Assembly: GCA_964617735.1 (NCBI GenBank)
Contig: CAZTXT010000001.1
Coordinates: forward strand, 532,776-596,775
From: an uncultured Candidatus Saccharibacteria bacterium
GTDB lineage: Bacteria; Patescibacteriota; Minisyncoccia; Phycocordibacterales; DSPV01
Reading direction: 5' to 3'
DNA length: 64,000 bases
Shown: positions 5,953 to 53,129 of the stretch, in pieces
Numbering within the stretch: position 1 is the first letter of the stretch
How the letters are laid out: the number at the start of each line of letters is the position of its first letter
Translations under genes and position numbers: made by a program
Notes under the pieces: generated by a model
What the model was told of the DNA's origin: nothing
The model's database searches: none
What the model saw: only the letters and a program-made list of their open reading frames with translations

Positions 5953-6186
5953 AATGAACCGATTTCACCTCCGTGCAAACTTCCACCTTTTCCCACTTGT
6001 CTACCATTCTATACCACTCTATAGTCTCTGCAAACACAGTTATCCACATGGTCTACATCCGATAACACCAAAAAATCCGGACGGAAACGCATAGAAAAAA
6101 CCCGAGAAATGGGCGTATCTTTTCGATCGGTCCGTGGGTACAACAAAAAAGCCGACCATGCGGTCGGCTTTTCCTTTGACTCGTCG

Positions 6187-7650: not shown

Positions 7651-7654
7651 CTCT

Positions 7655-10709: not shown

Positions 10710-11515
10710 GGAGCGTGGGGTGCGCCGGTCTTGATAAGCACGGTTCGCTGTTCAAAGATATTGACCGGAATGCGAAAACGCACCAGTTGTAAGAAATCAA
10801 CGTCTCGATGCTCGAGCGACTCGACGGCACCGAGCGATATCCGCTCCCGACCCGGCAGTACCACAATATCTCCCTTTGCCACGGGCGCCTCCTGCGGAAG
10901 CAGTGCCTCAAACGCCCCTCCACCCACGCCGTGCGCGGAAGCTTGCAAACCCTTTGTACCGATCAGGACCGTAACGTCGTTTGCAGGAGCAGAAAGCAAA
11001 GTCGCGCGGGAGAAATCTCTGAACACTTCGGTTATCGAGCCCAGCGCAACGCCTCCCAGAGAAGTGACCGTATCACCAAGACTCACTCCTGCATCCGCTC
11101 CTGCCTCGAGCACCAGCGTGTCATACGGCGAGAGCGGCGGACGCAACAGAACGTCCGCTAAAAGGTCACGGCCAGGACTTTTTTCAACCGAAGAGGTCGC
11201 CAGCCGCTCATTCTCCGGAAAACCGGAAGCGAGGAGCTCTTGCCGCGCAAGCTCCAATTCAGTACTAAGCCGCCGATTCTCTGCGGTGAGCGTTTCTTTA
11301 GAGACCAGATAATCGAAAAACCCCGAAAAAAAACCGGCGATCTCATCGCGCGTTCGCCCTAAAGGCGCAGACACGTTATAGATGATGGTCGGGAAAAACG
11401 ATGGCGCCAAGAGTGCAACGACGACGCATATGAAAAGCAGGAAGAGTGCGACATAGAAAGAACGCCCGCCGCGCCAGCGATGCAGATTACTGCTCGAGGG
11501 GAAGGTCCGCCTCAT
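10706..11515 (-). CDS. mreC: rod shape-determining protein MreC
   Basis: N-terminal TM, coiled coil, then beta-rich domain. Sits between mreB and mreD. Confidence 0.7.
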   Translation of the reverse strand: MRRTFPSSSNLHRWRGGRSFYVALFLLFICVVVALLAPSFFPTIIYNVSAPLGRTRDEIAGFFSGFFDYLVSKETLTAENRRLSTELELARQELLASGFPENERLATSSVEKSPGRDLLADVLLRPPLSPYDTLVLEAGADAGVSLGDTVTSLGGVALGSITEVFRDFSRATLLSAPANDVTVLIGTKGLQASAHGVGGGAFEALLPQEAPVAKGDIVVLPGRERISLGAVESLEHRDVDFLQLVRFRIPVNIFEQRTVLIKTGAPHAP

Positions 11516-13935: not shown

Positions 13936-15030
13936 CTAGAGCAGATGGACGATATCCTTGTACGTGATAAGAACGAGAAGCAGCAGGAGTAATCCAAAAC
14001 CAACTGCATTAAGGGTTCTCGTCACCTTAGGCGGCAGCGGCCGGCGGATGAGTGCTTCGATGAGCACGAAGAAGAGTCGTCCCCCGTCGAGCGCGGGAAA
14101 TGGGATCACATTGATGACGGCAAGATTGAGCGAGATGATAGCGGTAAATGAGATGAGATAGAAAAATCCGAGCGAGGTCGCAGAGCCCACCATCACCGCG
14201 ATGCCAACCGGCCCCGATACCTGCGAGAAATCAGCATGCCCCGTCACTACCTGATAAAGGAAAACACCGATGGCCTGCGCGATCACTAAGAAAAGGTCGA
14301 TCGTTCGCTTCCCTCCTTCCCATAGAGCACTGAAAAACGGGAGCTTGAGCGTCCCTACCTGATCCATGCTGATGCCAATGCCTGCAACCGCGCTTACCAC
14401 GCCTTTTTTGGGCGTGACCTCAAGAGAAAGGTCTTGCCCGCTACGCTTCAGATTGATGGTGAGCGTTTTACTTTCGTGCGCCGCGATGAATTCCTGCACG
14501 TTTTTGATCGAAACACTGGAGAGACGATCGTCAGATGAAGCGCTCATGTTCAGTATCGCATCGCCCGCTTTGATGCCGGCGACATCGGCGGGAGAGAGCG
14601 GTAAGACATCCACGATCAGCAAACGCTCATTTTCCAGATGCGCTCCGACATACTGTTCGGTCGAGACGGGTGCGCCGGTCATAAAGACCAATGACAAAAG
14701 AACCCAGGCGAAAATGATGTTCATGAGTATCCCGCCCAAAAGCACAAGTGCCTGCACCGCACGGTTTTTCGCAATGAAACTCCGGGCACGATCGGGACTA
14801 TCCGGCAGAACGTCGATGGCTTCTTCGCCGAAGATCTTGACGTAACCGCCGAACGGCACGATGTTGAGAGCATACAGAGTCTCGCCGATCTTTTTCGAGA
14901 TTATCCGCGGCGGAAAACCGAGTGCAAATTCATCCACCCTGATGCCAAAAAGCTTGGCCAAACTGAAATGACCGAGTTCATGGACGAACACTAGAACCGC
15001 AAGAATAACGATAAAAAGTACGACAGTCAC
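13936..15030 (-). CDS. rseP: RIP metalloprotease RseP (site-2 protease) with PDZ domain
   Basis: HELGH zinc motif in TM1, a PDZ domain, and the C-terminal LDGG motif. Confidence 0.8.
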   Translation of the reverse strand: MTVVLFIVILAVLVFVHELGHFSLAKLFGIRVDEFALGFPPRIISKKIGETLYALNIVPFGGYVKIFGEEAIDVLPDSPDRARSFIAKNRAVQALVLLGGILMNIIFAWVLLSLVFMTGAPVSTEQYVGAHLENERLLIVDVLPLSPADVAGIKAGDAILNMSASSDDRLSSVSIKNVQEFIAAHESKTLTINLKRSGQDLSLEVTPKKGVVSAVAGIGISMDQVGTLKLPFFSALWEGGKRTIDLFLVIAQAIGVFLYQVVTGHADFSQVSGPVGIAVMVGSATSLGFFYLISFTAIISLNLAVINVIPFPALDGGRLFFVLIEALIRRPLPPKVTRTLNAVGFGLLLLLLVLITYKDIVHLL

Positions 15031-15036
15031 AGAAAA

Positions 15037-15588
15037 TTACGAGAGTATTTCTTTTTCCTTCTTCGAGAACAACTCATCGAAACCCTTGGAAGCCTGCTGA
15101 ACAGCCTTTTCCATTTCGTCTTTGAGACGGAATTTCTCGTCCTCGCCCATTTTCCCCTCTTTCTCTTTCGATTGAATATCCCTCCAGACTTCGTCGCGGA
15201 TAGCACGAAGCTTTTTGCGAGCTTCCTCGAGCTTCTCTTTGGCGACCTTGAAATATCCCTCGCGCCGCTCGGCGGTCAGCTCGGGAAAGATGACACGGAG
15301 GCCGCGATCATCGACAGCGACCGAAAGACCAAGACTCGACTGCACGATGGCTTTCTCGATATTTTTCGTCTGGGACGGATCGTAGGGACTGATGCGTAGC
15401 GAGCGGGCGTCTTCGATGGAAACCGAGGAAAGTTCGCGGATGCCCATTTTTGCGCCGTAGGATTCGACCGAAACCCCATCGAGTATTGCCGGCGCCGCAC
15501 GTCCGGTGCGTATAGCGGAGAATTCCTTTTGCAGCCACGAAAGGCTCGCCGCCGTCTTTTCCCTCAGTGGTTTGAAATCATAAGCCAT
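15037..15588 (-). CDS. frr: ribosome recycling factor
   Basis: 183 aa with the typical RRF sequence. Confidence 0.85.
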   Translation of the reverse strand: MAYDFKPLREKTAASLSWLQKEFSAIRTGRAAPAILDGVSVESYGAKMGIRELSSVSIEDARSLRISPYDPSQTKNIEKAIVQSSLGLSVAVDDRGLRVIFPELTAERREGYFKVAKEKLEEARKKLRAIRDEVWRDIQSKEKEGKMGEDEKFRLKDEMEKAVQQASKGFDELFSKKEKEILS

Positions 15589-15622
15589 AGTGGAAAAAGT
15601 ATAGCAGATTATCGTTTAAAAT

Positions 15623-16339
15623 TTAATGCTTAGAACTTATAGGCGGCAGTATGAGCGCAAGATGCTCGAGGAGCATTTTCACGGAAGACGAACGGTCACT
15701 AATGTACTTGCGACAGAGCGCCAAATCATCAAAAGCCTCCTGTGCGATATTAGATTTTCCTCGCGTCTCCCAAAGCATTTTTTCAAGTTGGCCGATCAAA
15801 TCAACAGTGAATTGCTTCTCGAGATCACCGTCAAAGATATCATCGGCTATCTTCTTTGCAAGCGTCAGACGCTCGGCGGGAGAGGCAGAGAGGAATTCCT
15901 GCGCCTGATTCTTGGCGGCGCTCCCTGCCGGTCGCGCCGTGTCGATGATATACAAACGCGAAGAGACCGTGGGAAGCAGAACTTGCGCGCGCGGAACGAT
16001 GAGAAAGAAATGGGTGCGTTCTCCAGGCTCTTCAAGGGTCTTTAAGAGCGAATTTTGCGCTTCAGTGGTCGCAGTGTTGAACGCGGCGATGATGACCTTG
16101 CGATTGCCGAATGCCTTGCGTTCGGCGATGTCTTTCACCCTGCGAGCATCGTCAATCGTAAGGACGTCAAAGCGCGAAACATGCAGGTCTGGGTTCCCGC
16201 GCAATTCAAAATTCTTAATCTTTTGTAAAAACGCCAAGATGTCGGAAATCGCTTCTTCTCTGTCCCCCGCAATGAGATAGGCATGATGGAGGGAAAGCGC
16301 TTCTTCTCCGGCCCAGCTTGAGATTTTCTCGGCTTGCAT
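15623..16339 (-). CDS. holB: DNA polymerase III delta'/delta-like clamp-loader subunit (no intact Walker A)
   Basis: AAA+-like clamp-loader fold signature (HHAYLIAGD, TLEEP, sensor SRL) but no GxxGxGKT. Confidence 0.5.
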   Translation of the reverse strand: MQAEKISSWAGEEALSLHHAYLIAGDREEAISDILAFLQKIKNFELRGNPDLHVSRFDVLTIDDARRVKDIAERKAFGNRKVIIAAFNTATTEAQNSLLKTLEEPGERTHFFLIVPRAQVLLPTVSSRLYIIDTARPAGSAAKNQAQEFLSASPAERLTLAKKIADDIFDGDLEKQFTVDLIGQLEKMLWETRGKSNIAQEAFDDLALCRKYISDRSSSVKMLLEHLALILPPISSKH

Positions 16340-16429: not shown

Positions 16430-17443
16430 TTATCGCTTCGCAATGATTGACTTCTTATACGCATCCAAGTGCTCGAGCGCGACCCCCGTCCCGCGGGCGA
16501 CGCAGAAGAGCGCATCCTTGGCAAGGGTTGCTTTCACGCCGGTGCGGCGAAAAACCAGTTCGGGAAAGTTGCGCAGCTGGGACGAACCGCCGGTCATGAT
16601 GATGCCGCGCTCAATGATATCCGCCGCAAGCTCGGGAGGAGTTTCCTGCAAAACATCCTTGATGGCCTTGATCATCTCACGCAATTCGCGGCTGATGGCC
16701 TTGACCACCTCGTTGGTCCGGAACTCGGCGCTCCGCGGAAGACCCGTGACGAAATCCCTGCCCTTCACCATCATCGCGATCTCTTCTTCCAGCGGTATCG
16801 CCGAGCCTATCGTTAGCTTTATCTCTTCCGCCATGCGATCCCCGATGGAGAGGTTGTATGTTTTCTTGAGATAATCGGCGATCGCCGAATCCATCCGGTT
16901 GCCAGCGCACTTGACCGAGTTGCAGGCGACAATGCCACCGAGAGAGATGACCGCGACATCCGTGGTCCCTCCGCCGATGTCCACCACCATATGCCCAACC
17001 GGTTCATGGATAGGGATGCCCGCGCCGATAGCGGCCAAGATCGGCTCTTTCACCACGAACGCGTTTTTCGCGCCAGCTCTGATGGCAGCCTCGATAACGG
17101 CGCGCCGTTCAGTGGAAGTCACCGAGGCGGGCACCGACACCATCACGTCAGGCTTCCAGATGTTCCAGCGGCCGAGCGCCTTGCCGATGAAATAACGTAA
17201 CATCGCCTCGGTCACCCGATAGTCGGCGATGACACCGTCTTTCATCGGCCGATAGGCAACAATGGAATCGGGGGTCTTCCCCACCATCTTCTTCGCCTCA
17301 ATGCCGACCGCAAGAATTTTGCGATCAACTTCAGAAACCGCCACTACGGATGGTTCGTTGAGTACGATACCCCTTCCCGGCGCGAAAACCAGGGTGTTCG
17401 CGGTTCCGAGGTCAATGCCCAACTTTGTAGAAAATAGAGCCAT
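16430..17443 (-). CDS. MreB/Mbl actin-like protein, second paralogue
   Basis: Motifs GIDLGTANT, DIGGGTTD and GGSS. Stand-alone, with its own terminator. Start placed at MALFSTKLGIDLGT. Confidence 0.8.
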   Translation of the reverse strand: MALFSTKLGIDLGTANTLVFAPGRGIVLNEPSVVAVSEVDRKILAVGIEAKKMVGKTPDSIVAYRPMKDGVIADYRVTEAMLRYFIGKALGRWNIWKPDVMVSVPASVTSTERRAVIEAAIRAGAKNAFVVKEPILAAIGAGIPIHEPVGHMVVDIGGGTTDVAVISLGGIVACNSVKCAGNRMDSAIADYLKKTYNLSIGDRMAEEIKLTIGSAIPLEEEIAMMVKGRDFVTGLPRSAEFRTNEVVKAISRELREMIKAIKDVLQETPPELAADIIERGIIMTGGSSQLRNFPELVFRRTGVKATLAKDALFCVARGTGVALEHLDAYKKSIIAKR

Positions 17444-17558
17444 AGAGGTAGCGTATAGGGTACAGCGGAAAGCCCAGAGCGTCCAGTCAGAAACGCCCAA
17501 AATCACCTTAGCACGTCACTTCCATATACATAGCACATATGCTATACTGGCTGATACC

Positions 17559-19082
17559 ATGACTGTGACAGAAAAAAAGAAGCTCTCGGTCCTCGGTCAG
17601 CTCATCAAGAGCCTGCGGGAGGAACGTGCGATCACCCAATCGACATTCGCGAAAAAACTCGGCACGACGCAGAGCGCCGTCGCACGCATCGAGAGCGGGG
17701 AGCAGAACGTGAGCGCCGGAATCTTAAGCCGCATCTCGGACATTCTCGAAAAAGACGTCATTCAAGTGAACGACGGCGCCATGAACATCCAGATCGAGGG
17801 AGGCCATGAACTCTCGGGAACAGTCGTCACCAAAACTTCCAAGAACGCGGCGATGGGACTGCTGTGCGCTTCCCTGCTGAACCGCTCGGAAACGATCCTC
17901 GAGCATGTCCCCAGGATCGAAGAGGTCCATCGGATGGTGGAAGTGCTCGTAAGCATCGGGGTACAGGTCCGCTGGGACAACGACAATCTCATCATCAAGC
18001 CGCCGGAGAAGATTGCTCCAGAATCAATGGATCGGACCGCCGCACAAAAAACCCGCAGTGTCATCATGCTCACCGGACCCCTGATGCATCTGTTGCCGAA
18101 ATTCTCGCTGCCGCAACCCGGCGGCTGCAAGCTCGGCAGCCGCTCTATCCGTCCACACCTCTACGCGCTTGAGCGCTTGGGCGTCAAAATAACCACCCGG
18201 CGCGGAAGCCATGACGTGATCATCGGCCCTCCGAAAGATCGCGAGATAATCCTCTACGAATCAGGCGACACCGTGACCGAGAACATCCTTATGGCCACGG
18301 CAAAGCTTCCGGGAAAAACCGTAATCAAGTACGCCTCGGCGAATTATCAAATCCAGGAACTCTGCTACTTTCTCGAGAAGCTCGGCGTCACGATCGAGGG
18401 CATCGGCACCACGACCCTCACCGTAAATGGCATACCGGTCATCGACACGCCAGTGCGCTACAGCCTCGCCGAAGACCCCATCGAATCCATGTTCATGCTC
18501 GCAGCCGCTATCGTCACGCGCTCGAATATCACGATCAAGCGCTGCCCCATCGACTTTTTGGAGCTCGAATTGCTCAAGCTCAAAAAGATGGGTTTTAGAT
18601 ATAAACAGAGCAAACGCTATAAAGCTCTCAATGGCCGAACGAATTTGGTCGACCTAGAAACCTTACCGTCAAACCTCAACGCCCTCGAGGAGAAGATAGA
18701 CGCACGACCCTATCCCGGGCTCAACATAGACAACCTTCCTTTCTTTGCGGTCATCGCGACGCAGGCGAAGGGACAGACATTCATCCATGATTGGGTTTAC
18801 GAGGGACGTGCGATACACTACAAAGAGCTCGATAAGCTCGGCGCAGAGGTGATAGTGGCCGATCCGCACCGGGCGTATATAAACGGGCCCACGGCTCTTG
18901 CTGCTGCCGAAGTCATTTGTCCGCCGGCGCTACGGCCTGCAGCAATCATTTTGATCGGCATGCTCGCGGCAAAAGGGACTTCCATACTGCGTAACATCTA
19001 TTCGATAAATCGGGGATACGAAGACTTGGTAAAGCGGCTCAACGCATTGGGCGCAAAAATAAAGATACTAAGGAACCTGTAG
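17559..19082 (+). CDS. murA: UDP-N-acetylglucosamine 1-carboxyvinyltransferase with N-terminal XRE-type HTH domain
   Basis: Residues 1-65 form an HTH (QSTFAKKLGTTQSAVARIESGE). The remainder is the MurA/EPSP-synthase-fold enolpyruvyl transferase. TATACT at 17544-49 lies close to the ATG. Confidence 0.75.
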   Translation: MTVTEKKKLSVLGQLIKSLREERAITQSTFAKKLGTTQSAVARIESGEQNVSAGILSRISDILEKDVIQVNDGAMNIQIEGGHELSGTVVTKTSKNAAMGLLCASLLNRSETILEHVPRIEEVHRMVEVLVSIGVQVRWDNDNLIIKPPEKIAPESMDRTAAQKTRSVIMLTGPLMHLLPKFSLPQPGGCKLGSRSIRPHLYALERLGVKITTRRGSHDVIIGPPKDREIILYESGDTVTENILMATAKLPGKTVIKYASANYQIQELCYFLEKLGVTIEGIGTTTLTVNGIPVIDTPVRYSLAEDPIESMFMLAAAIVTRSNITIKRCPIDFLELELLKLKKMGFRYKQSKRYKALNGRTNLVDLETLPSNLNALEEKIDARPYPGLNIDNLPFFAVIATQAKGQTFIHDWVYEGRAIHYKELDKLGAEVIVADPHRAYINGPTALAAAEVICPPALRPAAIILIGMLAAKGTSILRNIYSINRGYEDLVKRLNALGAKIKILRNL

Positions 19083-33080: not shown

Positions 33081-33983
33081 GTGAACCGAAAGAGTTTGTT
33101 CCTATTTATAGCGCTAGGTGTCATACTGATGATCACATACGCGGTGTTCATCGGAGGCGGACGCTTGGTAGTGCTCAATCCGCAGGGAACCATCAGTCTT
33201 GAAGAGCGCAATCTTATCGCAACGGCGGTGCTCTTGATGCTTACCATCGTCATACCCGCTCTGGTGATGACCTTCTATTTCGCGTGGAGATACCGTGCGG
33301 GCAATACGAAAGAGATATATGCGCCGGATTGGTCGGGGAATCCGCGCATCCAGCTTATCTGGTGGGTCGTGCCAGCTGCGGTCATTTCCATCCTCGCTCT
33401 GATCACCTGGCGTGGCACTCACGCCCTCGACCCATACAAACCCATCGCTTCCGATGAAAAGCCACTGACCATACAAGTCGTTGCCCTTCGTTGGAAATGG
33501 CTTTTTATTTACCCTGACCTCAATATCGCGACGGTAAACACTCTTGAGCTTCCCGTCGGCACGCCGCTTAATTTTGAGCTTACGGCTGATGCGCCCATGA
33601 GTTCTTTCTGGATACCAGCGTTGGGCGGCCAGATGTATGCGATGGCAGGTATGACAACGCAGCTTCATCTCTTAGCCAATGCACCGGGAACATTCAAAGG
33701 CTCCAATGCCGAGATCAGTGGCGCTGGATTTTCAAGTATGACGTTTCCGGTAAAGGCGCTGTCGCGCGATGATTTCAATGTTTGGGTCTTGACTGCACGC
33801 GCATCGGGACGAGTGCTCAACGCAGATGAATACGCAACCGTGGCGAAACCGAGCGAGAATGCGCCGATACAGTATTATTCTTCCGTCCAAGACGACCTGT
33901 ATACTATGATAATGATGAGCTATATGATGCCGATGCCGGAGATGACCGGAAGCACAGAACCAACAGCGGATAGCCATTATTGA
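33081..33983 (+). CDS. cyoA: cytochrome bo3 ubiquinol oxidase subunit II
   Basis: Close to the E. coli CyoA pattern (WKWLFIYPD, IPALGGQMYAMAGMTTQLHLLANAPGTF). CuA Cys ligands are absent, as expected for quinol oxidases. GTG start inferred. Confidence 0.8.
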   Translation: MNRKSLFLFIALGVILMITYAVFIGGGRLVVLNPQGTISLEERNLIATAVLLMLTIVIPALVMTFYFAWRYRAGNTKEIYAPDWSGNPRIQLIWWVVPAAVISILALITWRGTHALDPYKPIASDEKPLTIQVVALRWKWLFIYPDLNIATVNTLELPVGTPLNFELTADAPMSSFWIPALGGQMYAMAGMTTQLHLLANAPGTFKGSNAEISGAGFSSMTFPVKALSRDDFNVWVLTARASGRVLNADEYATVAKPSENAPIQYYSSVQDDLYTMIMMSYMMPMPEMTGSTEPTADSHY

Positions 33984-34002
33984 ATATGATGCGTGCACAC
34001 AC

Positions 34003-35979
34003 ATGAACATTCTCTTTGGAAAACTCACTCCCGCGGCGCTTCCCCACGAATGGTTCACGATCGGCGGAACCATCGCGATGGCCGCCACCGGTCTCTGCAT
34101 CGCCTTCCTTTTGACCTATTACAAGCGGTGGAAATGGCTTTGGAGCGAATGGTTGACCTCAACCGACCCTAAGAGGATCGGTATCATGTACATGGTGGTC
34201 GCCTCGGCGATGTTCGTGCGCGGCGCACTCGATGCCGTGATGATCTGGCTCCAACAATCTCTCGCCTCCGGCTCATCGCACGGCTACCTCTCGGCAGACC
34301 ATTTTCAGCAGATATTCACCGCGCACGGCAATATCATGGTCTTCTTCGTTACGATGGGATTCCTCTTCGGATTGATGAACCTGATACTGCCGCTTCAGAT
34401 CGGTGCTCGCGACCTCGCATTCCCCTTCCTTAATTCTTTGAGCTTCTGGCTCTACGTCGCTGGCGCGCTCCTCATCAATATGTTCTTCGTCGCGGGAGGC
34501 GAATTTGCCGCAACGGGGTGGCTCGCGGTTGCTCCGCTCTCGGGCATCCAATACAGCCCGGGGGTCGGGGTGGATTATTGGATATGGAGCCTGCAGGTCT
34601 CCGGACTCGGAACATTGTTAGGCGGCATCAATTTTTTGGTTACTATCATTAAAATGCGGGCGCCCGGCATGACGCTGATGAAAATGCCTCTCTTCACATG
34701 GACATCGCTGTGCAGCATGGTCCTTATCGTCTCGGTCTTCCCTATTCTCGCCGCCACGATCGCGCTCCTCTTCCTCGATCGGTTCTTTGGCTTGCATTTC
34801 TTCACCTCAAGCTTTGGCGGGAACCCCATGATGTACATCAATCTCATCTGGTCATGGGGACATCCGGAAGTCTATATTCTCATCCTTCCTGCGTTCGGAG
34901 TTTTCAGCGAGGTAGTCTCTACGTTCTCGCAGAAACGCCTCTTCGGCTACACCTCGATGGTCGCCGCCGCGATCGGCATCACGCTTCTCTCTCTCCTGGT
35001 CTGGCTGCACCACTTCTTTACGATGGGAGCTGGCGCTGACGTCAACGCGTTCTTCGGCATCATGACCATGTTCATTTCAGTACCTACCGGCCTCCAGGTC
35101 TTCAACTGGATCTGTACGATGTACAGAGGCAAGATCGTCTTTTCGACCCCGATGTACTGGTTCCTCGGTTTCGTCGGCACCTTCACGTTCGGCGGCATGG
35201 CGGGAGTCCTCATGGCAATCCCTCCGGCCGATTTCCAACTGCATAACAGTTTATTCCTCGTCGCCCACTTCCACACGATGATCATCGGAGGCGCGCTCTT
35301 CGGAATATTCGCCGGCTTTACCTATTGGTTCCCCAAAGTCATGGGGTTTCGGCTCAATGAACGCCTCGGTAAATATGCCTTTTGGTGTTGGCTCGTCGGC
35401 TTCTTCGTATCATTCGTCCCCCTCTATATTTTGGGGCTGATGGGCGCGACCCGCCGCCTCGACCACTACGATGCCTCGACAGGCTGGCAACCCCTTTTTA
35501 TGATCGCACTCCTCGGCTCTCTGATCATCACCGTTGGGGTTATCTTCCAGTTGGTCCAAATCATCGTGAGCATCAAACAGCGGAAACTGAATACCGATAC
35601 GACGGGCGATCCATGGAATGGGCGGACGCTTGAATGGTCAACCGCATCCCCCGCACCAGCTTACAATTTTGCATTGATACCACGCGTGGAGAGCCGCGAT
35701 GCATTTTGGGAAATGAAAAAAGGCAAGAAACCGCGACTCTCGGGCGCTGATTTTAAGGACATCCTGATGCCCAAAAACACTCCGATCGGCATTTATATCG
35801 CAGGATTCGTATTTCTCTTCGGCTTCGCGGCCGTCTGGCATATCATTTGGCTTATGATCGCAGGTATCATCGGGGCGATCGCCTGCGCCGTGATCCGCAT
35901 GTTCGACGAGGAAACCGAATACACTATCCCCGCGAGCGAGATCGCGAAAATAGAAGCCCAAAGAACTGTTCATGGATAA
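34003..35979 (+). CDS. cyoB: cytochrome bo3 ubiquinol oxidase subunit I
   Basis: 658 aa heme-copper oxidase subunit I with conserved His ligands (HPEVYILILPAFG, HHFFTMG). Confidence 0.9.
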   Translation: MNILFGKLTPAALPHEWFTIGGTIAMAATGLCIAFLLTYYKRWKWLWSEWLTSTDPKRIGIMYMVVASAMFVRGALDAVMIWLQQSLASGSSHGYLSADHFQQIFTAHGNIMVFFVTMGFLFGLMNLILPLQIGARDLAFPFLNSLSFWLYVAGALLINMFFVAGGEFAATGWLAVAPLSGIQYSPGVGVDYWIWSLQVSGLGTLLGGINFLVTIIKMRAPGMTLMKMPLFTWTSLCSMVLIVSVFPILAATIALLFLDRFFGLHFFTSSFGGNPMMYINLIWSWGHPEVYILILPAFGVFSEVVSTFSQKRLFGYTSMVAAAIGITLLSLLVWLHHFFTMGAGADVNAFFGIMTMFISVPTGLQVFNWICTMYRGKIVFSTPMYWFLGFVGTFTFGGMAGVLMAIPPADFQLHNSLFLVAHFHTMIIGGALFGIFAGFTYWFPKVMGFRLNERLGKYAFWCWLVGFFVSFVPLYILGLMGATRRLDHYDASTGWQPLFMIALLGSLIITVGVIFQLVQIIVSIKQRKLNTDTTGDPWNGRTLEWSTASPAPAYNFALIPRVESRDAFWEMKKGKKPRLSGADFKDILMPKNTPIGIYIAGFVFLFGFAAVWHIIWLMIAGIIGAIACAVIRMFDEETEYTIPASEIAKIEAQRTVHG

Positions 35980-36541
35980 GTACGACCAGGGCGAAAAAAA
36001 TATCTTCGGTTTCTGGGTCTATCTGATGACCGACCTCTTAATGTTCGGCGTGCTGTTCGCGGCGTACGCGGTTCTGCGCACGAATACCTTCGGCGGTCCG
36101 GGAGGTCGTGATCTCTTCAATCTTCCATTTGCGCTCACCGAAACGCTCATACTCCTGACGTCGAGCTTCACCTGCGGCCTCTCTATGCTTGCTGCGCGTG
36201 AGCATCGGATGAGCGGGGTGGTCACGTGGCTTGGCACTACGTTCATTTTGGGAATCACCTTCCTCGTCCTGGAACTGAAAGAATTCTCGCACCTCGTAAG
36301 CGACGGAAACGGACCGCAGCACAGCGCTTTTCTGTCCTCATTCTTCACGCTCGTGGGAACGCACGGCTTGCACATCACCTTCGGCCTCTTGTTCATCACA
36401 ATACTGCTTGTCCAAGCATCACGACAAGGTCTCACCGAAGCGATGGTGAATCGGCTCGCACGCATGAGCATGTTCTGGCATTTTCTCGATGTCGTATGGA
36501 TATTCATATTTACCATCGTTTACCTTTCAGCCTTCGTTTAG
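35972..36541 (+). CDS. cyoC: cytochrome bo3 ubiquinol oxidase subunit III
   Basis: IFGFWVYLMTDLLMFGVLFAAYAVL matches the CyoC N-terminus. Five TM helices. Confidence 0.85.
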   Translation: MDKYDQGEKNIFGFWVYLMTDLLMFGVLFAAYAVLRTNTFGGPGGRDLFNLPFALTETLILLTSSFTCGLSMLAAREHRMSGVVTWLGTTFILGITFLVLELKEFSHLVSDGNGPQHSAFLSSFFTLVGTHGLHITFGLLFITILLVQASRQGLTEAMVNRLARMSMFWHFLDVVWIFIFTIVYLSAFV

Positions 36542-36555
36542 TACCGATCAAGAAC

Positions 36556-36915
36556 ATGGAGACACCGAAAGAAAACCAGAAACTCACGCTATCCTATATC
36601 ATAGGGTTCATCGCTTCCCTTGTGCTGACACTGGTCGCGTATTTTCTGGTCGCTGGTCATCGGTTCGAGGGCGGCGTATTACTATCAGCGATCCTTGGCC
36701 TGGCGATAATCCAGCTTTTGGTGCAGCTGATCTGTTTCCTACATATCGGACACGAGACCGGACCTCGATGGAACCTCGCCGCGCTCATCTCCACCCTCTC
36801 CGTCATTGGTATCGTCGTGGTCGGGTCGCTGTGGATCATGGCGCATCTCAACTACAACATGACACCAACGGAGGTTGATTCGTACGTGATGCACCAGGAA
36901 GGAATGCAGAAATAA
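36556..36915 (+). CDS. cyoD: cytochrome bo3 ubiquinol oxidase subunit IV
   Basis: 119 aa with three TM helices. Sits between cyoC and cyoE. Confidence 0.75.
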   Translation: METPKENQKLTLSYIIGFIASLVLTLVAYFLVAGHRFEGGVLLSAILGLAIIQLLVQLICFLHIGHETGPRWNLAALISTLSVIGIVVVGSLWIMAHLNYNMTPTEVDSYVMHQEGMQK

Positions 36916-36988
36916 AAAAGCTCGCACCAGAGGTACGAGCAGTTAAACATGCATAGAGTGTCCTTTCTCCTAAAGTTGTTTAAGTCTT

Positions 36989-37396
36989 TTAGTCAGGAAT
37001 CTCGACAACGCTTCCGGCGCTTCGAAATGCTCGGCGCAAAAAGCGTTCTCTCTTCTCAGCTGCCACACGGGGCAAGAGGCCACGAACCTGATAGCATAAC
37101 CAAATGAGTTTGGCTCCACCCTCCCTTTTCTTGAAGTGATGAGCCAATTTGATTATATCCTCGATGAGATCCGGAGACTCGCACAGAACTTTCCGTGCCA
37201 AGTCTTTGAACTCACTGATGGATGTGTGTCCTTGAATCAGAAACATCCGTTCTGATTTGTTGCCCTTCCGAGCAAGTTGTCTTGCAACATCTTCGCGCTC
37301 CTTTAACATTCGCGCTTGATCTGCTAACACCTGGCTCTTTTCTTCGTCCGTGATTAACCCGACTTTGTTCAATGCATCAGCTAATGAGGTAGACAT
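36989..37396 (-). CDS. hypothetical protein
   Basis: 135-aa ORF with no recognised motif. Confidence 0.35.
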   Translation of the reverse strand: MSTSLADALNKVGLITDEEKSQVLADQARMLKEREDVARQLARKGNKSERMFLIQGHTSISEFKDLARKVLCESPDLIEDIIKLAHHFKKREGGAKLIWLCYQVRGLLPRVAAEKRERFLRRAFRSAGSVVEIPD

Positions 37397-37525
37397 AAAC
37401 AGTATTTTTGGTGTTCTTTATCATGGATCCGCTAGCAGAAACTAGCTTCTCCAAATCCAATAGCACATTAACACAACATACGATGTATTGTCAACATCTC
37501 TAAAACGGCCTATTTCCTATATAAT

Positions 37526-38389
37526 TTGAGTACCAACGTGTTTAAAAACTATTACGCGCTGACGAAACCCGGCATCATCTACGGCAACCTCATTACCACG
37601 GCGACGGGGTTTTTGCTGGCATCCAAATGGAATGTAAATCTAGCACTACTTATCGCAACACTATCGGGTATCGCTCTCGTGATGGCATCGGGGTGCGTGT
37701 TCAACAACATCATAGACAGAGCCATCGACGCACGAATGGAGCGGACGAAAAGTCGCGGCCTAGTTACGGGAAAGATTTCAAAACAAAATGCGGTTATCTT
37801 CGCTCTCCTCCTTGGAATCGGCGGCCTCTTCATGCTCGGGAAATATACTAATCCCCTCTCGCTTGGCATCACCCTGGTTGGCGTCTTTGTCTATCTTGTT
37901 CTCTACACCATCGGCAAGCGCCGCTCCATGTACGGGCCCCTGATCGGAAGCATCGCGGGTGCAGTCCCGCCCGTGGTCGGCTACACTGCCGTAACCGCTC
38001 ATCTCGAGCTTGCGGCGATGATTCTATTTCTGATGCTCATTCTCTGGCAGATGCCGCATTTCTACGCGATCGCCATCTTCCGTAAGGAAGAATATGCCAT
38101 GGCAGGAATCCCGATACTCCCCATACAAAGAGGCATTCGGAGCACGAAGATCTTGATCGTGCTCTACATAATCGCCTTCGCGATCGTCTCGCTTTCCCTC
38201 ACCCTTTTGGGATCAAGCGGCCGCATCTACTTTTCGGTTGTCCTGGCGCTCAATATCGCATGGCTTTCTCTCTCCCTGTGGGGTTTCCGTGCAGCAGATG
38301 AAAAGCTCTGGGCTCGGAAGATGTTTTTCTTTTCGCTCTTTACCCTCCTTATAACCTTCATAGCGCTCGCGCTCGATGTGACACAATGA
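37526..38389 (+). CDS. cyoE: protoheme IX farnesyltransferase (heme O synthase)
   Basis: UbiA-family motifs (NxxxDxxxD: NNIIDRAIDARMERTKSRG). Confidence 0.85.
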   Translation: MSTNVFKNYYALTKPGIIYGNLITTATGFLLASKWNVNLALLIATLSGIALVMASGCVFNNIIDRAIDARMERTKSRGLVTGKISKQNAVIFALLLGIGGLFMLGKYTNPLSLGITLVGVFVYLVLYTIGKRRSMYGPLIGSIAGAVPPVVGYTAVTAHLELAAMILFLMLILWQMPHFYAIAIFRKEEYAMAGIPILPIQRGIRSTKILIVLYIIAFAIVSLSLTLLGSSGRIYFSVVLALNIAWLSLSLWGFRAADEKLWARKMFFFSLFTLLITFIALALDVTQ

Positions 38390-40977: not shown

Positions 40978-41433
40978 TTATTTCCCGTCGAACGCCTTTT
41001 TGAGCCCTGCGATATCGATCTTCTCCATAGCAAGCATCGCCTGCATGGCGCGATTCGCTTTTTCTCGATCGTCATCGCCGAGCATATCGCCGAGGGCGGC
41101 GGGAATTATCTGCCACGAGAGGCCATATTTATCCTTCAGCCATCCGCACTGCTGCGTCTTCCCTCCCACAGAGAGCTTTTCCCAGAAATAATCTACTTCT
41201 TTTTGGTCCTTGCAATCCACAAAGAGTGATATGGCTTCGGTGAACTTGAATTGAGGACCGCCATTGATGGCCTTGAATTCCTGCCCTTCCAATTCGAACG
41301 AAACGCCCATCGCATTGCCGTCCGGTCCGGGCATGACGGAGAGTATCTTGGAATTCTTAAAAATAGAGGTGTAGAACTTCGCCGCCGCTTCCGCCTCCGT
41401 ATTGAACCAAAGAAATGGAGTTACTTTTTGCAT
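40978..41433 (-). CDS. VOC-family (PhnB/3-demethylubiquinone-9 methyltransferase-like) protein
   Basis: MQKVTPFLWF...SWQIIP pattern of the PhnB-like glyoxalase fold. Confidence 0.6.
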   Translation of the reverse strand: MQKVTPFLWFNTEAEAAAKFYTSIFKNSKILSVMPGPDGNAMGVSFELEGQEFKAINGGPQFKFTEAISLFVDCKDQKEVDYFWEKLSVGGKTQQCGWLKDKYGLSWQIIPAALGDMLGDDDREKANRAMQAMLAMEKIDIAGLKKAFDGK

Positions 41434-47449: not shown

Positions 47450-48637
47450 TTGGAAGATGCTGCACGTCTGATGGCAAAAATCAAAACAACGTTAGCATAT
47501 ATCGGTCTCGGTCTGTTCATCATCGCCTGCGCACTCTCTTTAGCGCAGTTTAATGCGCGTGCAAGCGACGGAGATGAGCGCATTCTGGTCAAATATAAAG
47601 CAGAGAGCTCTGAAGAACAGATCGCGAAATTCGACAAGAAGTTCGGCTCTGATCTAGAAGAAATAATTCCCAAGCTGGGCGTGCGTATCGTAAGCGTTCC
47701 CGCAAACCTCGAGCGCGAAATAATCGGCAAACTCAAAAAGTATGCGCTCGTCGAATATGCCGAACCGGACGCCTTGGCCCAGGCCCTCTTCGTGCCGAAC
47801 GACCCGTATCTCCCCAATGAATGGGGTCTGGTAAATATCCATGCAACCAATGCATGGGATGTCGCTACCGGCACGTCGACAGTTAAGATCGCTATCCTCG
47901 ATACGGGCATCGATTATGACCACGGTGATCTCAAAAGCAAGGTCGTCTCGAACACCAATTTCACTGCCAGCAAATCGGCTACGGACCGCAACGGGCACGG
48001 CACCCATGTCGCCGGCATCGCTGCAGCGACGACGAACAATGCGCGCGGCGTCGCGAGCATCGGCTACTCATCCTCACTGATGAACGTCAAAGTCCTCTCC
48101 GACAACGGGAGCGGCTACTACTCATGGATCGCCAACGGAATAATTTTCGCCGCCGATAACGGCGCAAAAGTCATCAACATGAGCCTGGGCGGGAGCAGTG
48201 CTTCGCAGACCCTACAAGATGCTATCGACTACGCATGGTCAAAAGGCGTCGTGATCGTCGCTGCAGCTGGCAATAACAACAATAGCACGCCGAGCTACCC
48301 CGCATACTACGCCCACGTCATCGCCGTAGGCGCCACCGACGAAAATGACAGTCGCGCCAGCTTCTCTAACTTCGGCGACTGGGTAGATGTCGCGGCTCCT
48401 GGAGTCAATATCCTCTCCACCTATCCGCATATAGGCCGCACGGACCGTTATGCATATCTAAGTGGCACTTCGATGGCTTCGCCCTTCGTCGCCGGCCTTG
48501 CGGCGCTGGTATGGAATACTGCGTCCGGAACCGACAACCAGACCGTCCGAGACCGAATAGAGAACACTGCCGATACGCTCCCGACTTCCTGGACTACACA
48601 CGGCCTCATCGACGCCGCTAAAGCCGTTACGTTTTAA
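47450..48637 (+). CDS. secreted subtilisin-like serine protease (peptidase S8) with propeptide
   Basis: Signal peptide, an I9-like propeptide, and the catalytic triad motifs DTGID, HGTHVAG and GTSMASP. Confidence 0.85.
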   Translation: MEDAARLMAKIKTTLAYIGLGLFIIACALSLAQFNARASDGDERILVKYKAESSEEQIAKFDKKFGSDLEEIIPKLGVRIVSVPANLEREIIGKLKKYALVEYAEPDALAQALFVPNDPYLPNEWGLVNIHATNAWDVATGTSTVKIAILDTGIDYDHGDLKSKVVSNTNFTASKSATDRNGHGTHVAGIAAATTNNARGVASIGYSSSLMNVKVLSDNGSGYYSWIANGIIFAADNGAKVINMSLGGSSASQTLQDAIDYAWSKGVVIVAAAGNNNNSTPSYPAYYAHVIAVGATDENDSRASFSNFGDWVDVAAPGVNILSTYPHIGRTDRYAYLSGTSMASPFVAGLAALVWNTASGTDNQTVRDRIENTADTLPTSWTTHGLIDAAKAVTF

Positions 48638-49295: not shown

Positions 49296-52200
49296 ATGCA
49301 TATACGCCGCGCTTCAGTGTTAGTTTTTTTAGGCATTCTCTCGCTCTTGAGCCTGTCAGCGCTCTTCTTCCTTCTACCTTCCGCTCCCGCACAAGCCGCA
49401 TGCGGCCATACTACCGAGTTTATTCCCTACCCAGACCCAAATGGCCCGGCGTACCTACCCAAAATCGGCTGGTTCGAACCGATCGGAAAATACTACAGTC
49501 CCTTCACCTATACCAATAACCTGCAGACGCCGACGATCCTCCCCCCGCCGGCGAATGGTTCGATGTGGGTCTATTACGATGACTGCGAGAGCTCTCCAAG
49601 CACTTCAACGATCAGCATCGGGGGAACCGATATACGCTGGACTGAAGCCAATACCTCCGGCACGCAATCATACGAGCCTCTGGCAAGCGTGCCGGTCGGC
49701 GGGTTTGGACCTAATCAACCCTACAACAACACCTGCGACCCCAGCAGATATTACTGTTACTGCCATATCTTAGGGAGTATAGCGTGTGTCTTGCAAGAAG
49801 GGTATTCGACCATCGGCTACTCAAATTATAGCGCCGACGGAGACATTCCTGCGGGAGAGCGGCAGACAAATAAGGGCTGGATCACTTCGGTACAAGATAT
49901 AAACCATTCTCTCGCAAGCCTCGTGGGTACCTCGACCCTAGAAGAAGATCAGTGGCTTGATAAGATTTCCCAGGAGAATACCGTGGGAGTCAGGGTGGAT
50001 ACTCCCGGCATCGGCTCCCACGTTTTTGACGTTCCATATACGAATTGCCTCATTGATGACGGAGTGAGCTTTCGAGCTCCCTATCCCGCCGAAATCAACG
50101 ACAAAACAAAAAACAAAGTGGTGTTCGTGCGCGGCAAGAGCGATTCAAATATCAATTATTTTATCACCAATGTTAATAAGGCAATCCAGGACGGTTTCTA
50201 TTCCGTTGACCCATTCAAGACGTATAAAGACAATTTTTCTTTCTATGTTGACCTCGATAAAATAGATGACTCGAACGTGCCCCTTGAAACCGTTTTCTTA
50301 AATGGGACTACTACGAGCTTCTTTCAACCCATTTTTGACACTGTGGTGCGGCTCACTTCAAGCTGCAGCGGGCTGCACGGCGGCACAGGAGATTCCTTTT
50401 ATATCTTCTATGTCGACCAACGCACTAGACCCCAATTATACCCAGGGTACTCTCGCACGGTTGCATATATTGATGATTCTCTCACAGACCTTACTCTAAC
50501 GACGTTGCACGAGTTTGGACATCAATTCGCTTCTCTCAACGATGAATACGAGAAATCAGTATATGGTGTTTTACCCGGAAGTTTCTTCGGGACATCGATT
50601 TTTGCGGAAAACTGTACCTCATTCCCCCGAACTAAATACAGAAATTCTTCAAACAACAAAGTGTACGGTTCACTTCAAAATACAGGGTGTGCATACATCA
50701 GTAATCTACCGGCCCCTAAACCCGATCCGCAGTATTACTTTAGACCCTCCATTGACAGCATTATGCGTTCTACGAGTCCCGCAGGAAGAAAATTCAATAT
50801 CATTGATTGCGGCTACATTATGGCAGCGATGTTTGGAGAGCCACACACCAAAGCTAATGCGGAGAAGTACTGGCCAGCGGTGGCTAAATCGCCCATAGGA
50901 AACATCAAAGGATGCGCGGCAATGGATGTGGATAGCGATGGCGTTCCTCCCCCAAACCTGTCAACTCCTGCATTCACCACTCCTTCCTCTTCGTCTGCAG
51001 CTCCCGGCCAATCGCTTACGGTGACTGGCTCTAACTTCACCCCAACTGACAATGCCGCCCATTTCACGAACATCGACAGCGGGCAGACCCAAGGGATAAG
51101 CATTGCTGACCCGAACTGGAACCTGACCGGTCATTGGGGCTTGGCCTTTGGATATCTGTTCGGAAACGGTGCCGCGGACTCATACCCGGCAAATGATACT
51201 GCAACCGCCACGGCACCGACGCTTAACCTGCTCGCTCACAATGCGGCGCGGCAAGCTACCCTACACTTCACCTCAAGCTGTTCCACTGAAACTTCCGACC
51301 CTGCAACCGGAAATTCCGACTACCTCGCGCTCGAGTGGAGCGGCGACGGTCTGCACTGGGGTCAAACCGCGCGGTGGAACACGTTCACTGACGGCTCTGC
51401 GCCCTCGGTGCATAATCTGCCTATCCCCTCTGCGCTCATAACTTCGAGCTTCGCCTTCCGTTTCCGGTGGGTCACGAATGCAACAGACAATAATCACAAC
51501 GGCTGCGGGATCAAGGATATATCGGTCACTGCTCCCGAACTCTCTTATGAAGTACTCGGCATCCCATCGCCGGATGGCACACACCTCACCTTTAAAATCC
51601 CGACCACGACACCTGATGGCGCAACGACTACCCCCGACGGATTCTCTGCCGTGCCCGTAGCCGGGCAGTATAAGCTCAAGCTCGGCGCATTCAATTCCGA
51701 CTGGTCAAATTCTCTACCGTTCACGATTCTGGGAGGAACCCCGCCGCCCGTACTCAACGCTCTGACTCCTTCTACCAGCGCGGCAGGAAATGCAGTGGAA
51801 CTAGAGGGTCGAAACCTGAAGTCGGGAACGTACGTCACCCTCTCCCGAGCAGGCATTCCGGCACTCACACTAACCGGCGAAAGCCACGCAGGCGGCAAGT
51901 ATTTCGATATCACCCTACCCGCCACTCTTGTAAGCGGAATCTATCAGCTCACCGCGACCAACGGAGGAGTGGCGAGCAACGCCCTTACCCTCACCGTAGT
52001 CGGTCCCCCCACCATCACGCTCTCGGCTTCTCAACTCGCCATTGCTGTAGGACAATCCGTTACGGTTTCGTGGAGCACGACAGACGCCACTACCTGTCAG
52101 GCGACGGTCAATGGCTCCAGCAGCGCGATCGCCCTGTCGGGTACTGCTGTGCTGACGCCGACGACTACCCTCTCCATCTCGCTCACCTGCACCGGTATCG

Positions 52201-53129
52201 GCGGCAGCAACAACAGAAGCATCACCATTACCGTAGTACCACCGCCGACGATCACTCTCTCGGCTACCCCCATCCCGGTCCTTTTGGGTGGAACTGCGAC
52301 AATCTCATGGAGCAGCACTAATGCGACGGGCTGCGCGGCAGCGGGAGCCTGGAGCGGCGCGCTTCCTCCCTCCGGCGCCACCTCCACTGCACAAATCAAC
52401 ACTCCGACCACCCGCACCTACACGCTCACCTGCACCGGAGTGGGTGGTACTACTACCCAGAGCTTTGCCCTACCGGTCGTCTCGCTCACTGCAGTGAGTA
52501 CCGACCAGGGTAGCTACCACGTCGGCAATCCGATGGATATCAACTGGAGAAGCACGAACCTCGCCTCCCCCATCGCCCTCTACCTCTTCGATTACAAAGA
52601 CCTGCACCTGGTGCTTCCCATCGCCTCGAACCTCCCCAACAGCGGCTCGTACACCTGGACCATCTCTGACGCGGTTGATACTGCAAACGACACCATCTAT
52701 CGCATCCGCGTTACCAGCTCCGCCCCGCTCCTCTACACCCAGACTAGCCCGGTGGAGATCCTCCCCGCCCTCCCTTCGATCACCCTCTTAGCGTCGCTCA
52801 AAACCATCGACATCGGCAAGTCCACGACGCTTGACTGGACTACGACACACGCTCTTTCCTGCCAGGGCACCACCGACCGCGGCGACCTGCCCGGCTGGAG
52901 TACTCCAGGACTCTCGGGATCTTTTACCTACACCGCAACTGCCCAAACCGGCCCCAGCATCACCTTCACGCTCACCTGCACGGGAGATGGGGGAACGGCA
53001 AGCCAGTCGGTACAGATTACGGTCAATGCAAGCCCCGCCCGAAACCATTCACCATTGAGCTTCCTCGCCGCACTCGTAGCGGCAGTACAGCGGGTGCTTG
53101 AGGGACTGACGGGCTCACTGTCGCGGTAA
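49296..53129 (+). CDS. giant secreted HExxH zinc metallopeptidase-like protein (M64-like motif) with IPT/TIG domain and three tandem Ig-like repeats
   Basis: Signal peptide; HEFGHQFASLNDEY near residue 400; IPT-like VLNALTPSTSAAGNAVELEGRNL; three repeats of about 95 aa each carrying T(L/V)SWS...C...TYTLTCTGxGG. Confidence 0.6.
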   Translation: MHIRRASVLVFLGILSLLSLSALFFLLPSAPAQAACGHTTEFIPYPDPNGPAYLPKIGWFEPIGKYYSPFTYTNNLQTPTILPPPANGSMWVYYDDCESSPSTSTISIGGTDIRWTEANTSGTQSYEPLASVPVGGFGPNQPYNNTCDPSRYYCYCHILGSIACVLQEGYSTIGYSNYSADGDIPAGERQTNKGWITSVQDINHSLASLVGTSTLEEDQWLDKISQENTVGVRVDTPGIGSHVFDVPYTNCLIDDGVSFRAPYPAEINDKTKNKVVFVRGKSDSNINYFITNVNKAIQDGFYSVDPFKTYKDNFSFYVDLDKIDDSNVPLETVFLNGTTTSFFQPIFDTVVRLTSSCSGLHGGTGDSFYIFYVDQRTRPQLYPGYSRTVAYIDDSLTDLTLTTLHEFGHQFASLNDEYEKSVYGVLPGSFFGTSIFAENCTSFPRTKYRNSSNNKVYGSLQNTGCAYISNLPAPKPDPQYYFRPSIDSIMRSTSPAGRKFNIIDCGYIMAAMFGEPHTKANAEKYWPAVAKSPIGNIKGCAAMDVDSDGVPPPNLSTPAFTTPSSSSAAPGQSLTVTGSNFTPTDNAAHFTNIDSGQTQGISIADPNWNLTGHWGLAFGYLFGNGAADSYPANDTATATAPTLNLLAHNAARQATLHFTSSCSTETSDPATGNSDYLALEWSGDGLHWGQTARWNTFTDGSAPSVHNLPIPSALITSSFAFRFRWVTNATDNNHNGCGIKDISVTAPELSYEVLGIPSPDGTHLTFKIPTTTPDGATTTPDGFSAVPVAGQYKLKLGAFNSDWSNSLPFTILGGTPPPVLNALTPSTSAAGNAVELEGRNLKSGTYVTLSRAGIPALTLTGESHAGGKYFDITLPATLVSGIYQLTATNGGVASNALTLTVVGPPTITLSASQLAIAVGQSVTVSWSTTDATTCQATVNGSSSAIALSGTAVLTPTTTLSISLTCTGIGGSNNRSITITVVPPPTITLSATPIPVLLGGTATISWSSTNATGCAAAGAWSGALPPSGATSTAQINTPTTRTYTLTCTGVGGTTTQSFALPVVSLTAVSTDQGSYHVGNPMDINWRSTNLASPIALYLFDYKDLHLVLPIASNLPNSGSYTWTISDAVDTANDTIYRIRVTSSAPLLYTQTSPVEILPALPSITLLASLKTIDIGKSTTLDWTTTHALSCQGTTDRGDLPGWSTPGLSGSFTYTATAQTGPSITFTLTCTGDGGTASQSVQITVNASPARNHSPLSFLAALVAAVQRVLEGLTGSLSR

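Follow-up and report, generated by a model that had tools for sequence, protein, structure and literature searches.

The stretch analysed here, 64,000 nucleotides of contig CAZTXT010000001.1 (hereafter the window), carries the genes of a cytochrome bo3-type quinol oxidase, comprising four oxidase subunits (CyoA to CyoD) and a haem O synthase (CyoE). The list of open reading frames (ORFs) and searches against protein families show five intact genes, all of them on the plus strand (Table 1). The assignment is based on equivalog models, whose cut-offs are exceeded by CyoA (TIGR01433, score 298.5 vs 266.2), CyoC (TIGR equivalog, 247.2 vs 223.75), CyoD (TIGR equivalog, 95.7 vs 81.45), and CyoE (TIGR equivalog, 287.3 vs 210.3; NF003348, 352.3 vs 285), while CyoB clears its threshold only just (TIGR02843, 1025.5 vs 1020.35). 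By these matches the locus belongs to the cytochrome bo3-type quinol oxidases (cyoABCD plus haem O synthase). The models for Qox (aa3-600) and cytochrome c oxidase (CtaD) score the window proteins under their cut-offs, and the thresholds of the enterobacterial PRK models for the cyo subunits are not reached. CyoB matches the Escherichia coli CyoB structures 1FFT and 8F68 with E = 1.7e-265 and 60% identity, and CyoA matches E. coli CyoA (1fft_B) with E = 2.5e-80. Since CyoA is devoid of any Cys, it has no CuA site, and its GGQMYAMAGM segment begins at aa 182, just as the initial annotation had described subunit II. That annotation also proposed a complete cyoABCDE operon in canonical order with overlapping stops and starts. 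The five intact genes and their order hold, but only cyoB and cyoC overlap (by 8 nt), with gaps of 19 nt between cyoA and cyoB, 14 nt between cyoC and cyoD, and 610 bp between cyoD and cyoE, so that cyoE is not contiguous with cyoABCD. Moreover, the subunits themselves are not canonical, as the residues corresponding to E. coli Lys362, Glu89, and Arg80 are replaced.

Table 1. Positions of the oxidase genes, the replaced codons, and the features between cyoD and cyoE in the window, followed by tandem cyo operons of related loci (in the coordinates of each locus)
Feature	Position	Strand	Details
cyoA, subunit II	33081..33983	+	300 aa; GTG start at 33081; COX_ARM C-terminus
cyoB, subunit I	34003..35979	+	658 aa
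cyoC, subunit III	35972..36541	+	189 aa
cyoD, subunit IV	36556..36915	+	119 aa
cyoE, haem O synthase	37526..38389	+	287 aa from TTG 37526, or 283 aa from GTG 37538
CyoA Gln91 codon (CAG)	33351..33353	+	aligns with E. coli CyoA Glu89, K-pathway entrance; HMMER and MAFFT agree
CyoB Trp82 codon (TGG)	34246..34248	+	aligns with E. coli Arg80, bovine Arg38, beside the low-spin haem
CyoB Gln365 codon (CAG)	35095..35097	+	aligns with E. coli Lys362, bovine Lys319, the K-channel lysine
Intrinsic-terminator-like hairpin	36920..36940	-	9-bp stem with 6 G-C pairs, then TTTTTTATTT
orf135, antisense gene between cyoD and cyoE	36989..37396	-	135 aa
Tandem cyo operons, L025	9153-18768		complete chromosome OY969414.1
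Tandem cyo operons, L046	5380-12838		
Tandem cyo operons, L043	8927-16723		

The residues of CyoB were mapped onto the E. coli numbering by alignment, and two comparison sets were used, namely the window together with 80 related loci (81 sequences) and the 120 closest 90%-identity cluster representatives. The ligands of haem b (H108 and H424; E. coli H106 and H421), haem o3 (H422; E. coli H419), and CuB (H287, H336, and H337; E. coli H284, H333, and H334) are all kept, which bears out the full set of histidines noted at the outset. The cross-link tyrosine is kept as well (Tyr291; E. coli Tyr288). The D pathway is whole (D137, N126, N144, and E289; E. coli D135, N124, N142, and E286), with E. 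coli T201 conserved too, and so are R481 and R482 (E. coli numbering). At the quinol site, R73, D77, H100, Q103, and E16 correspond to E. coli R71, D75, H98, Q101, and E14, and among the 120 representatives R71 and H98 are found in 120/120, D75 in 119/120, and Q101 in 116/120. With all six ligand histidines, a cross-linking Tyr in helix VI, and a D channel that ends in the Glu of XGHPEV, CyoB fits the A-type (A1) in the Pereira/Sousa scheme (PMC3084760). In terms of sequence, the locus encodes the whole framework of a haem-copper quinol oxidase, in which the quinol site, electron path, binuclear centre, and D pathway are preserved, along with a haem O synthase dedicated to it.

The K pathway of this A-type enzyme is a different matter. 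In the standard classification, the A-type K channel is made up of Lys354, Thr351, Ser291, and Tyr280 in Paracoccus denitrificans numbering (PMC3084760), that is, Lys362, Thr359, Ser299, and Tyr288 in E. coli, and the K pathway of E. coli bo3 has been named as K362 and Y288 (PMC6423279). The window retains the Thr, Ser, and Tyr of this set and has a glutamine in place of the lysine, in a helix VIII that aligns without gaps (IPTGVKIFNW in E. coli, VPTGLQVFNW in the window). The subunit II Glu at the entrance of the A-type channel (E. coli E89, Rhodobacter sphaeroides E101) is likewise a glutamine. Lys362 and this Glu have been described as the essential pair of ionisable residues in the A-type K channel, and mutants in either lose activity (PMC8239185, citing Ma et al. 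1999 for E. coli Glu89). The third replacement, Arg80 by Trp, concerns a residue whose bovine counterpart Arg38 hydrogen-bonds the formyl group of haem a (PMC10194837); in the alignment with bovine COX1, 11 control residues map correctly. Further clade-specific changes are grouped in TM0, TM1, and the TM3-4 loop (P15W, A74L, M79I, S159F/L160F, and a one-residue insertion), and the helices of the ubiquinone groove have been assigned to TM0, TM1, and TM3 (PMC13022660). R80, E89, and K362 are not discussed in the structure papers that were consulted.

These replacements are shared by a whole group of relatives. Among the 81 sequences, position 362 is a Lys in 54 (K-type), and the 27 others (K-less; 22 Gln and 5 Leu) are exactly those most similar to window CyoB. 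Lysine is absent from 117/120 of the closest representatives as well (107 Gln and 10 Leu, with 3 Lys). Position 80 is a Trp in 120/120 of these representatives and an Arg in 54/54 K-type sequences, while CyoA position 89 is a Glu in 54/54 K-type operons and in 8/27 K-less operons, the remaining K-less operons having Gln, Ala, Lys, His, Val, Ser, or Asp. The neighbouring positions have loosened in the same group, with Thr359 found as 18 Thr, 4 Ala, 4 Ser, and 1 Met and Gly360 as 17 Gly, 8 Ala, and 2 Ser, whereas Thr359, Gly360, and K362 are each kept in 58/58 K-type sequences. Ser299, Tyr288, and Glu286 are invariant in both groups. The K-less clade is as a whole no less conserved than the K-type set, their mean pairwise identities being 66% and 64%, respectively. 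The K-less sequences are monophyletic in a neighbour-joining tree, and their bipartition was recovered in 100/100 bootstrap replicates after removal of columns 362 and 80. As far as sequences can tell, the K-less enzymes are thus a distinct, monophyletic subfamily of bo3-type oxidases, occurring in several lineages of the candidate phyla radiation (CPR) and in some environmental Chlamydiae.

Three members of the Trp80 clade have Lys362. Two of them also keep Glu89, and the third (L084) has Gln89. Of the cyo genes, the L084 locus (5171-7962) has cyoA and cyoB alone, with a LysM/M23 peptidase gene next in line, and it adjoins a Cu-type P-ATPase and a CsoR-like repressor, so that the operon is apparently truncated or decaying.

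According to the labels as deposited, the K-less clade comprises Microgenomates, Levyibacteriota, Doudnabacteria, Paceibacteria, Uhrbacteria, and a few Saccharibacteria metagenome-assembled genomes (MAGs), and it also holds a sub-clade of Chlamydiae MAGs. Most of the Saccharibacteria operons sampled are of the canonical K-type and group with other Chlamydiae in the sister clade, for example L015, L016, L018, L019, and L021, which have K362, R80, and E89 of subunit II. Among the closest K-less loci (L001, L004, L006, L008, and L014), the record titles read 'uncultured Gammaproteobacteria' in several cases and Methylomirabilota, Acutalibacteraceae, or Binatia in others; since the CyoB of these loci branches amid CPR sequences, these labels may be automatic mis-assignments or reflect mis-binning.

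In three Chlamydiae-like loci (L025, L046, and L043), a K-less cyoABCD stands in tandem with a K-type cyoABCD(E), with Gln or Leu at position 362 in one operon and Lys362 and Arg80 in the other. The K-less copy in L025 has no cyoE of its own, the sole cyoE coming after the K-type operon. As the CyoB paralogues of the tandem loci are only 53-56% identical, the pair is old and maintained rather than a fresh duplicate, and the arrangement argues for a maintained, differentiated isoform.

The clade-wide pattern bears on one alternative, namely that the window encodes an ordinary and fully competent pumping bo3 oxidase in which the three substitutions are silent, water molecules or neighbouring polar groups carry the K-pathway protons, and the locus is nothing else than the known CPR cyo operon. 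The five scores over the cyo equivalog cut-offs fit this view, as do the retained redox ligands, D channel, S299, Y288, and quinol-site residues and the fact that B- and C-type oxidases work with lysine-free K-channel analogues (PMC3084760). However, both ionisable residues have been described as essential in A-type enzymes, in which their mutation abolishes activity (PMC8239185), and the K-less clade has relaxed K362, T359, and G360 (fixed in 58/58 K-type sequences) as well as E89 of subunit II (54/54). As all four positions are fixed in the K-type, this looks like an abandoned constraint rather than a conservative swap. The retention of both forms in tandem in Chlamydiae-like genomes also speaks against silent substitutions, and we consider this explanation rather unlikely.

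Regarding the host, the lysyl-tRNA synthetase (LysRS) encoded in the window most resembles sequences deposited under the names Candidatus Paceibacterota (77%) and Candidatus Taylorbacteria (73-74%), and the host is a streamlined Paceibacteria/Taylorbacteria-like CPR bacterium. CyoB and LysRS are recorded on one 674,686-bp NCBI contig, and an independent Logan assembly contains an identical CyoB. GC content, GC content at third codon positions (GC3), and codon usage of the cyo genes, a comparison that had been suggested from the start, lie inside the spread of the 37 other window genes and show no sign of contamination. Recent transfer or contamination is ruled out by this match in composition. 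Taken together, composition, the shared contig, and the Logan CyoB indicate that the operon is resident in a small CPR genome and is neither a contaminant nor a recent arrival. The nearest named relatives of window CyoB are found in Microgenomates, Levyibacteriota, and Doudnabacteria, while the host is Paceibacteria-like, a mismatch that is consistent with exchange among CPR bacteria.

The same observations, together with the conservation described above, make it highly improbable that the locus is what remains of a transferred operon now decaying or without function, its K-pathway lesions being early inactivating mutations, or a mis-binned or contaminant segment. It is true that the replaced residues are precisely those whose mutation inactivates the model enzymes (PMC8239185), that an inserted gene parts cyoE from cyoABCD, and that the clade member L084 has retained a truncated cyoAB-only locus. 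Nevertheless, none of the five ORFs of the window is disrupted, the same state is found in at least 117 distinct 90%-identity clusters with the other catalytic residues invariant or nearly so, and identity within the clade is as high as among canonical sequences. A contaminant would in turn have to share the GC, GC3, and codon usage of the housekeeping genes of the same 64 kb, their contig, and the independently assembled CyoB. Clade-wide purifying selection thus speaks strongly against a relic, which is largely refuted by the conservation.

With moderate confidence, and judging from sequence features, we favour the view that the window holds an intact, long-resident, K-less quinol oxidase locus that was acquired horizontally and encodes a working quinol:O2 reductase whose reductive half-cycle has been reorganised. 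In such an enzyme, scavenged membrane quinol would be oxidised and O2 reduced at the haem o3-CuB centre, with the chemical as well as the pumped protons entering through the D pathway. Judging from other CPR bacteria, quinol and haem b would probably both be scavenged. The protons of the reductive half-cycle, which normally take the K pathway, could follow another route (a water or polar path past Gln, Thr, and Ser), could also use the D pathway, or could be delivered more slowly. The loss of the positive charge of Arg80 would perhaps tune the potential of haem b and thereby help electrons into the binuclear centre without the charge compensation of the K pathway; this step takes its basis from what has reportedly been seen with R54M in P. 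denitrificans. The expected phenotype would be a low-flux oxidase consuming O2 (and possibly peroxide) that shields a cell living mainly by fermentation and contributes a little to the proton-motive force, unlike a high-turnover pump of the E. coli type.

Several points weigh against this functional reading. Engineered A-type oxidases lose activity without Lys362 or the subunit II Glu (PMC8239185), and because these K-pathway mutants are inactive, robust O2 turnover cannot be assumed. No compensating residue was found, in the sense that no Lys, Arg, Glu, Asp, or His has been gained among the clade-specific CyoB columns, the sole gains among the columns examined being L382Y and a Tyr at position 149. 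When the flanks of the 27 K-less loci were clustered in search of an electron donor (e.g., NDH-2) or a chaperone, none proved to be conserved. In addition, the tree is a neighbour-joining tree of 85 sequences and not a maximum likelihood tree on a broad sample, and the association between K362 and E89 (Fisher p = 1.5e-12) is uncorrected for shared ancestry.

Another way to account for the selective loss of the K pathway is a specialised quinol peroxidase that mainly reduces H2O2, possibly with pumping, and cycles from O to P/F to O on D-pathway protons. Such an enzyme would serve in detoxification for a catalase-poor epibiont or act as the second isoform in Chlamydiae. H2O2 reacts slowly with oxidised haem-copper oxidases, and the physiological relevance of a peroxidase is therefore doubtful. 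Support for the idea can be drawn from K-channel-blocked oxidases, which lose oxidase activity and keep the peroxidase partial reaction, a stage that does not use the K channel (PMC10095113), from the strict conservation of the D pathway and the binuclear centre but not of the K pathway, and from the three loci in which the K-less operon stands in tandem with a canonical one. On the other hand, no active-site change favouring the binding of H2O2 was seen, no peroxide-stress genes are linked in the flanks of the K-less loci, and the idea is entirely inferential. A peroxide-reducing role is thus legitimate and weaker than a quinol:O2 reductase, and we regard a specialised peroxidase as improbable.

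We put forward tentatively, as a possibility, that the K-less enzymes are natural A-family oxidases running without a K pathway, either drawing every proton through the D channel, with haem b retuned, or acting as proton-translocating quinol peroxidases. They might then be a second isoform beside a canonical bo3 oxidase in some Chlamydiae and the sole oxidase passed on to several CPR lineages.

The gap between cyoD and cyoE is occupied by an antisense gene, orf135, just downstream of which, and 5 nt beyond the stop codon of cyoD, lies a minus-strand hairpin (36940-36920). None of the 80 related cyo loci contains orf135, and any cyoE that lies downstream of cyoD in these loci comes almost directly after it. 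The codon usage of orf135 is the least host-like of the window genes. Its family comprises 113 representative clusters with full-length matches of ~125-145 aa each, of which 3/41 aligned members show weak matches to DUF2058; a Pfam search of orf135 itself returned no match, and a profile search of the PDB nothing meaningful. A spurious ORF is ruled out by the 113 full-length relatives and by its own terminator. Although it splits the operon, orf135 is not an oxidase component. As an antisense gene and a minus-strand terminator separate cyoD from cyoE, cyoABCD and cyoE are probably separate transcription units in this genome. By comparison with E. coli, CyoA further lacks the lipobox Cys.

Elsewhere the window encodes functions of cell wall synthesis and cell shape (mraW, ftsI, a MurF-like ligase, PBP2, MreC, two MreB genes, and an HTH-MurA), translation and transcription (LysRS, ProRS, HisRS, RRF, Fmt, GreA, and RpoD), as well as replication, repair, and other processes (PriA, AddA, and RseP). 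Rfam and tRNA scans of the window returned no RNA genes, tRNA and rRNA included. The signs of reduction that had been read from the sequence were confirmed, as ftsI in the dcw cluster is followed directly by a MurF-like ligase scoring under the MurF cut-off, with no intervening murE (1168-4240, minus strand), and the bacterial-type ProRS (12559-13815, minus strand) has no INS editing domain. Family searches likewise found no other respiratory genes and no quinone or haem biosynthesis genes in the 64-kb window, in agreement with the initial statement that no other respiratory genes lie nearby. The two MreB paralogues lie within 5 kb (11487-12824 and 16430-17506, both on the minus strand) and are accompanied by MreC and PBP2, an elaborate rod-shape machinery for a very small genome. 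The MurA ORF (17262-19082, plus strand) has an XRE-type helix-turn-helix (HTH) at aa 111-165 ahead of its MurA domain (aa 175-602), which suggests either a fusion of the two (HTH-MurA) or read-through from a small HTH gene into murA. A 1277-aa ORF (49296-53129, plus strand), whose sole Pfam match is a Kre9/KNH-like Ig domain, adjoins a subtilase (47450-48637) and is probably a large surface protein.

The two vicinal oxygen chelate (VOC) proteins near the oxidase genes belong to PF06983 and to a glyoxalase family, and are, as had been stated, not quinone-biosynthesis enzymes. The PF06983 protein (the '3-demethylubiquinone-9 3-methyltransferase' family) is encoded at 40978-41433 on the minus strand of the window, and members of the family occur also in L002 (~17377-17880), L006 (~14409-15314), and L007 (~15207-16196), that is, within 10 kb of K-less cyo genes in 4/27 loci. 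Apart from this family, only histidine kinases and response regulators recur in the flanks, likewise each in 4/27 K-less loci. The link of PF06983 to K-less cyo is weak and may be due to chance, and with a recurrence of only 4/27 loci the VOC proteins were rejected as part of the oxidase system.

Lone cyo operons have been reported repeatedly in CPR bacteria, including Saccharibacteria (PMC6031116, referring to RAAC3), soil Saccharibacteria, Doudnabacteria, and Parcubacteria (PMC8407418), and lake Paceibacteria and Saccharimonadia (PMC9166423). In phylogenetic trees the CPR cyo genes fall within clades of Proteobacteria and Chlamydiae, which points to horizontal transfer (PMC7507113, PMC8407418). 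These operons have been interpreted as serving to scavenge O2 or to respire in a limited way, with quinone and haem taken up from outside because genes for their biosynthesis were not found (PMC8407418, PMC6031116, PMC9166423, PMC7507113). The window belongs to this type according to LysRS, trees, and synteny, with cyoABCDE in a CPR genome and a CyoB that nests among Proteobacteria and Chlamydiae, the result of the phylogenetic check for horizontal acquisition that had been recommended. The initial annotation had read the lone bo3 oxidase as an O2 scavenger or minimal proton pump with an unexplained source of quinone; the operon is real, but this reading restates the published CPR interpretations and assumes a canonical enzyme. 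Proton channels are not mentioned in the searched parts of the text of three of the CPR cyo papers (PMC6031116, PMC8407418, and PMC9166423), and no earlier description of K-channel loss in CPR or Chlamydiae oxidases was found in the literature searched, which does not exclude a prior description. The lone CPR cyo operon is thus confirmed and not new, and the unremarked feature is the subfamily without a K pathway and with Arg80 replaced by Trp.

As first described, the operon is textbook for CPR bacteria and carries little weight alone. However, what the K pathway contributes to loading the binuclear centre is known almost entirely from point mutants that cripple the enzyme. A natural, diverse, and conserved clade without the two key residues, and with everything else retained, makes it possible to ask if an A-type oxidase manages without this pathway and what it pays in rate or H+/e-, the tandem canonical paralogue in Chlamydiae being a built-in control. 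The debate on whether CPR bacteria respire or scavenge O2 has assumed an E. coli-like enzyme. Should the form present in most CPR bacteria outside Saccharibacteria be a slow or peroxide-directed variant, 'aerobic capacity' deduced from genes needs revising.

Among known systems, E. coli bo3 has the same five genes in the same order, a CyoB that is 60% identical, and a subunit II without CuA, and it is identical in the ligands of haem b, haem o3, and CuB, the His-Tyr cofactor, the D channel, R481/R482, and the quinol-site residues. The window differs from it by the replacement of Lys362 and subunit II Glu89 by Gln and of Arg80 by Trp, by a remodelled hydrophobic quinone groove (the TM0, TM1, and TM3-4 loop changes given above), by the missing lipobox Cys and the antisense gene in front of cyoE, and, going by the CPR literature, presumably by a host type without known quinone or haem synthesis. 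The published CPR operons (RAAC3, T. rhizospherense, and others) are alike in that a lone cyoABCDE, whose phylogeny indicates transfer from Proteobacteria or Chlamydiae, is found in a reduced, otherwise fermentative genome, but most of the Saccharibacteria sampled are K-type, whereas the window falls in the K-less sister clade. B-type (ba3) and C-type (cbb3) oxidases also reduce O2 through a lysine-free K-channel analogue (PMC3084760), which shows that protons can in principle reach the binuclear centre without a lysine; these enzymes, however, have no D channel and use their own conserved Thr/Ser/Tyr set, whereas the window enzyme is A1-type with a full D channel and XGHPEV. Finally, the engineered mutants (R. 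sphaeroides aa3 K362M and E101 of subunit II; E. coli bo3 E89 of subunit II) are neutralised at the same positions, but they are laboratory point mutants that have lost oxidase activity and kept peroxidase partial activity (PMC8239185, PMC10095113), whereas the clade of the window represents a natural, ancient, and clade-wide state that is accompanied by other fixed changes such as the replacement of Arg80 by Trp.

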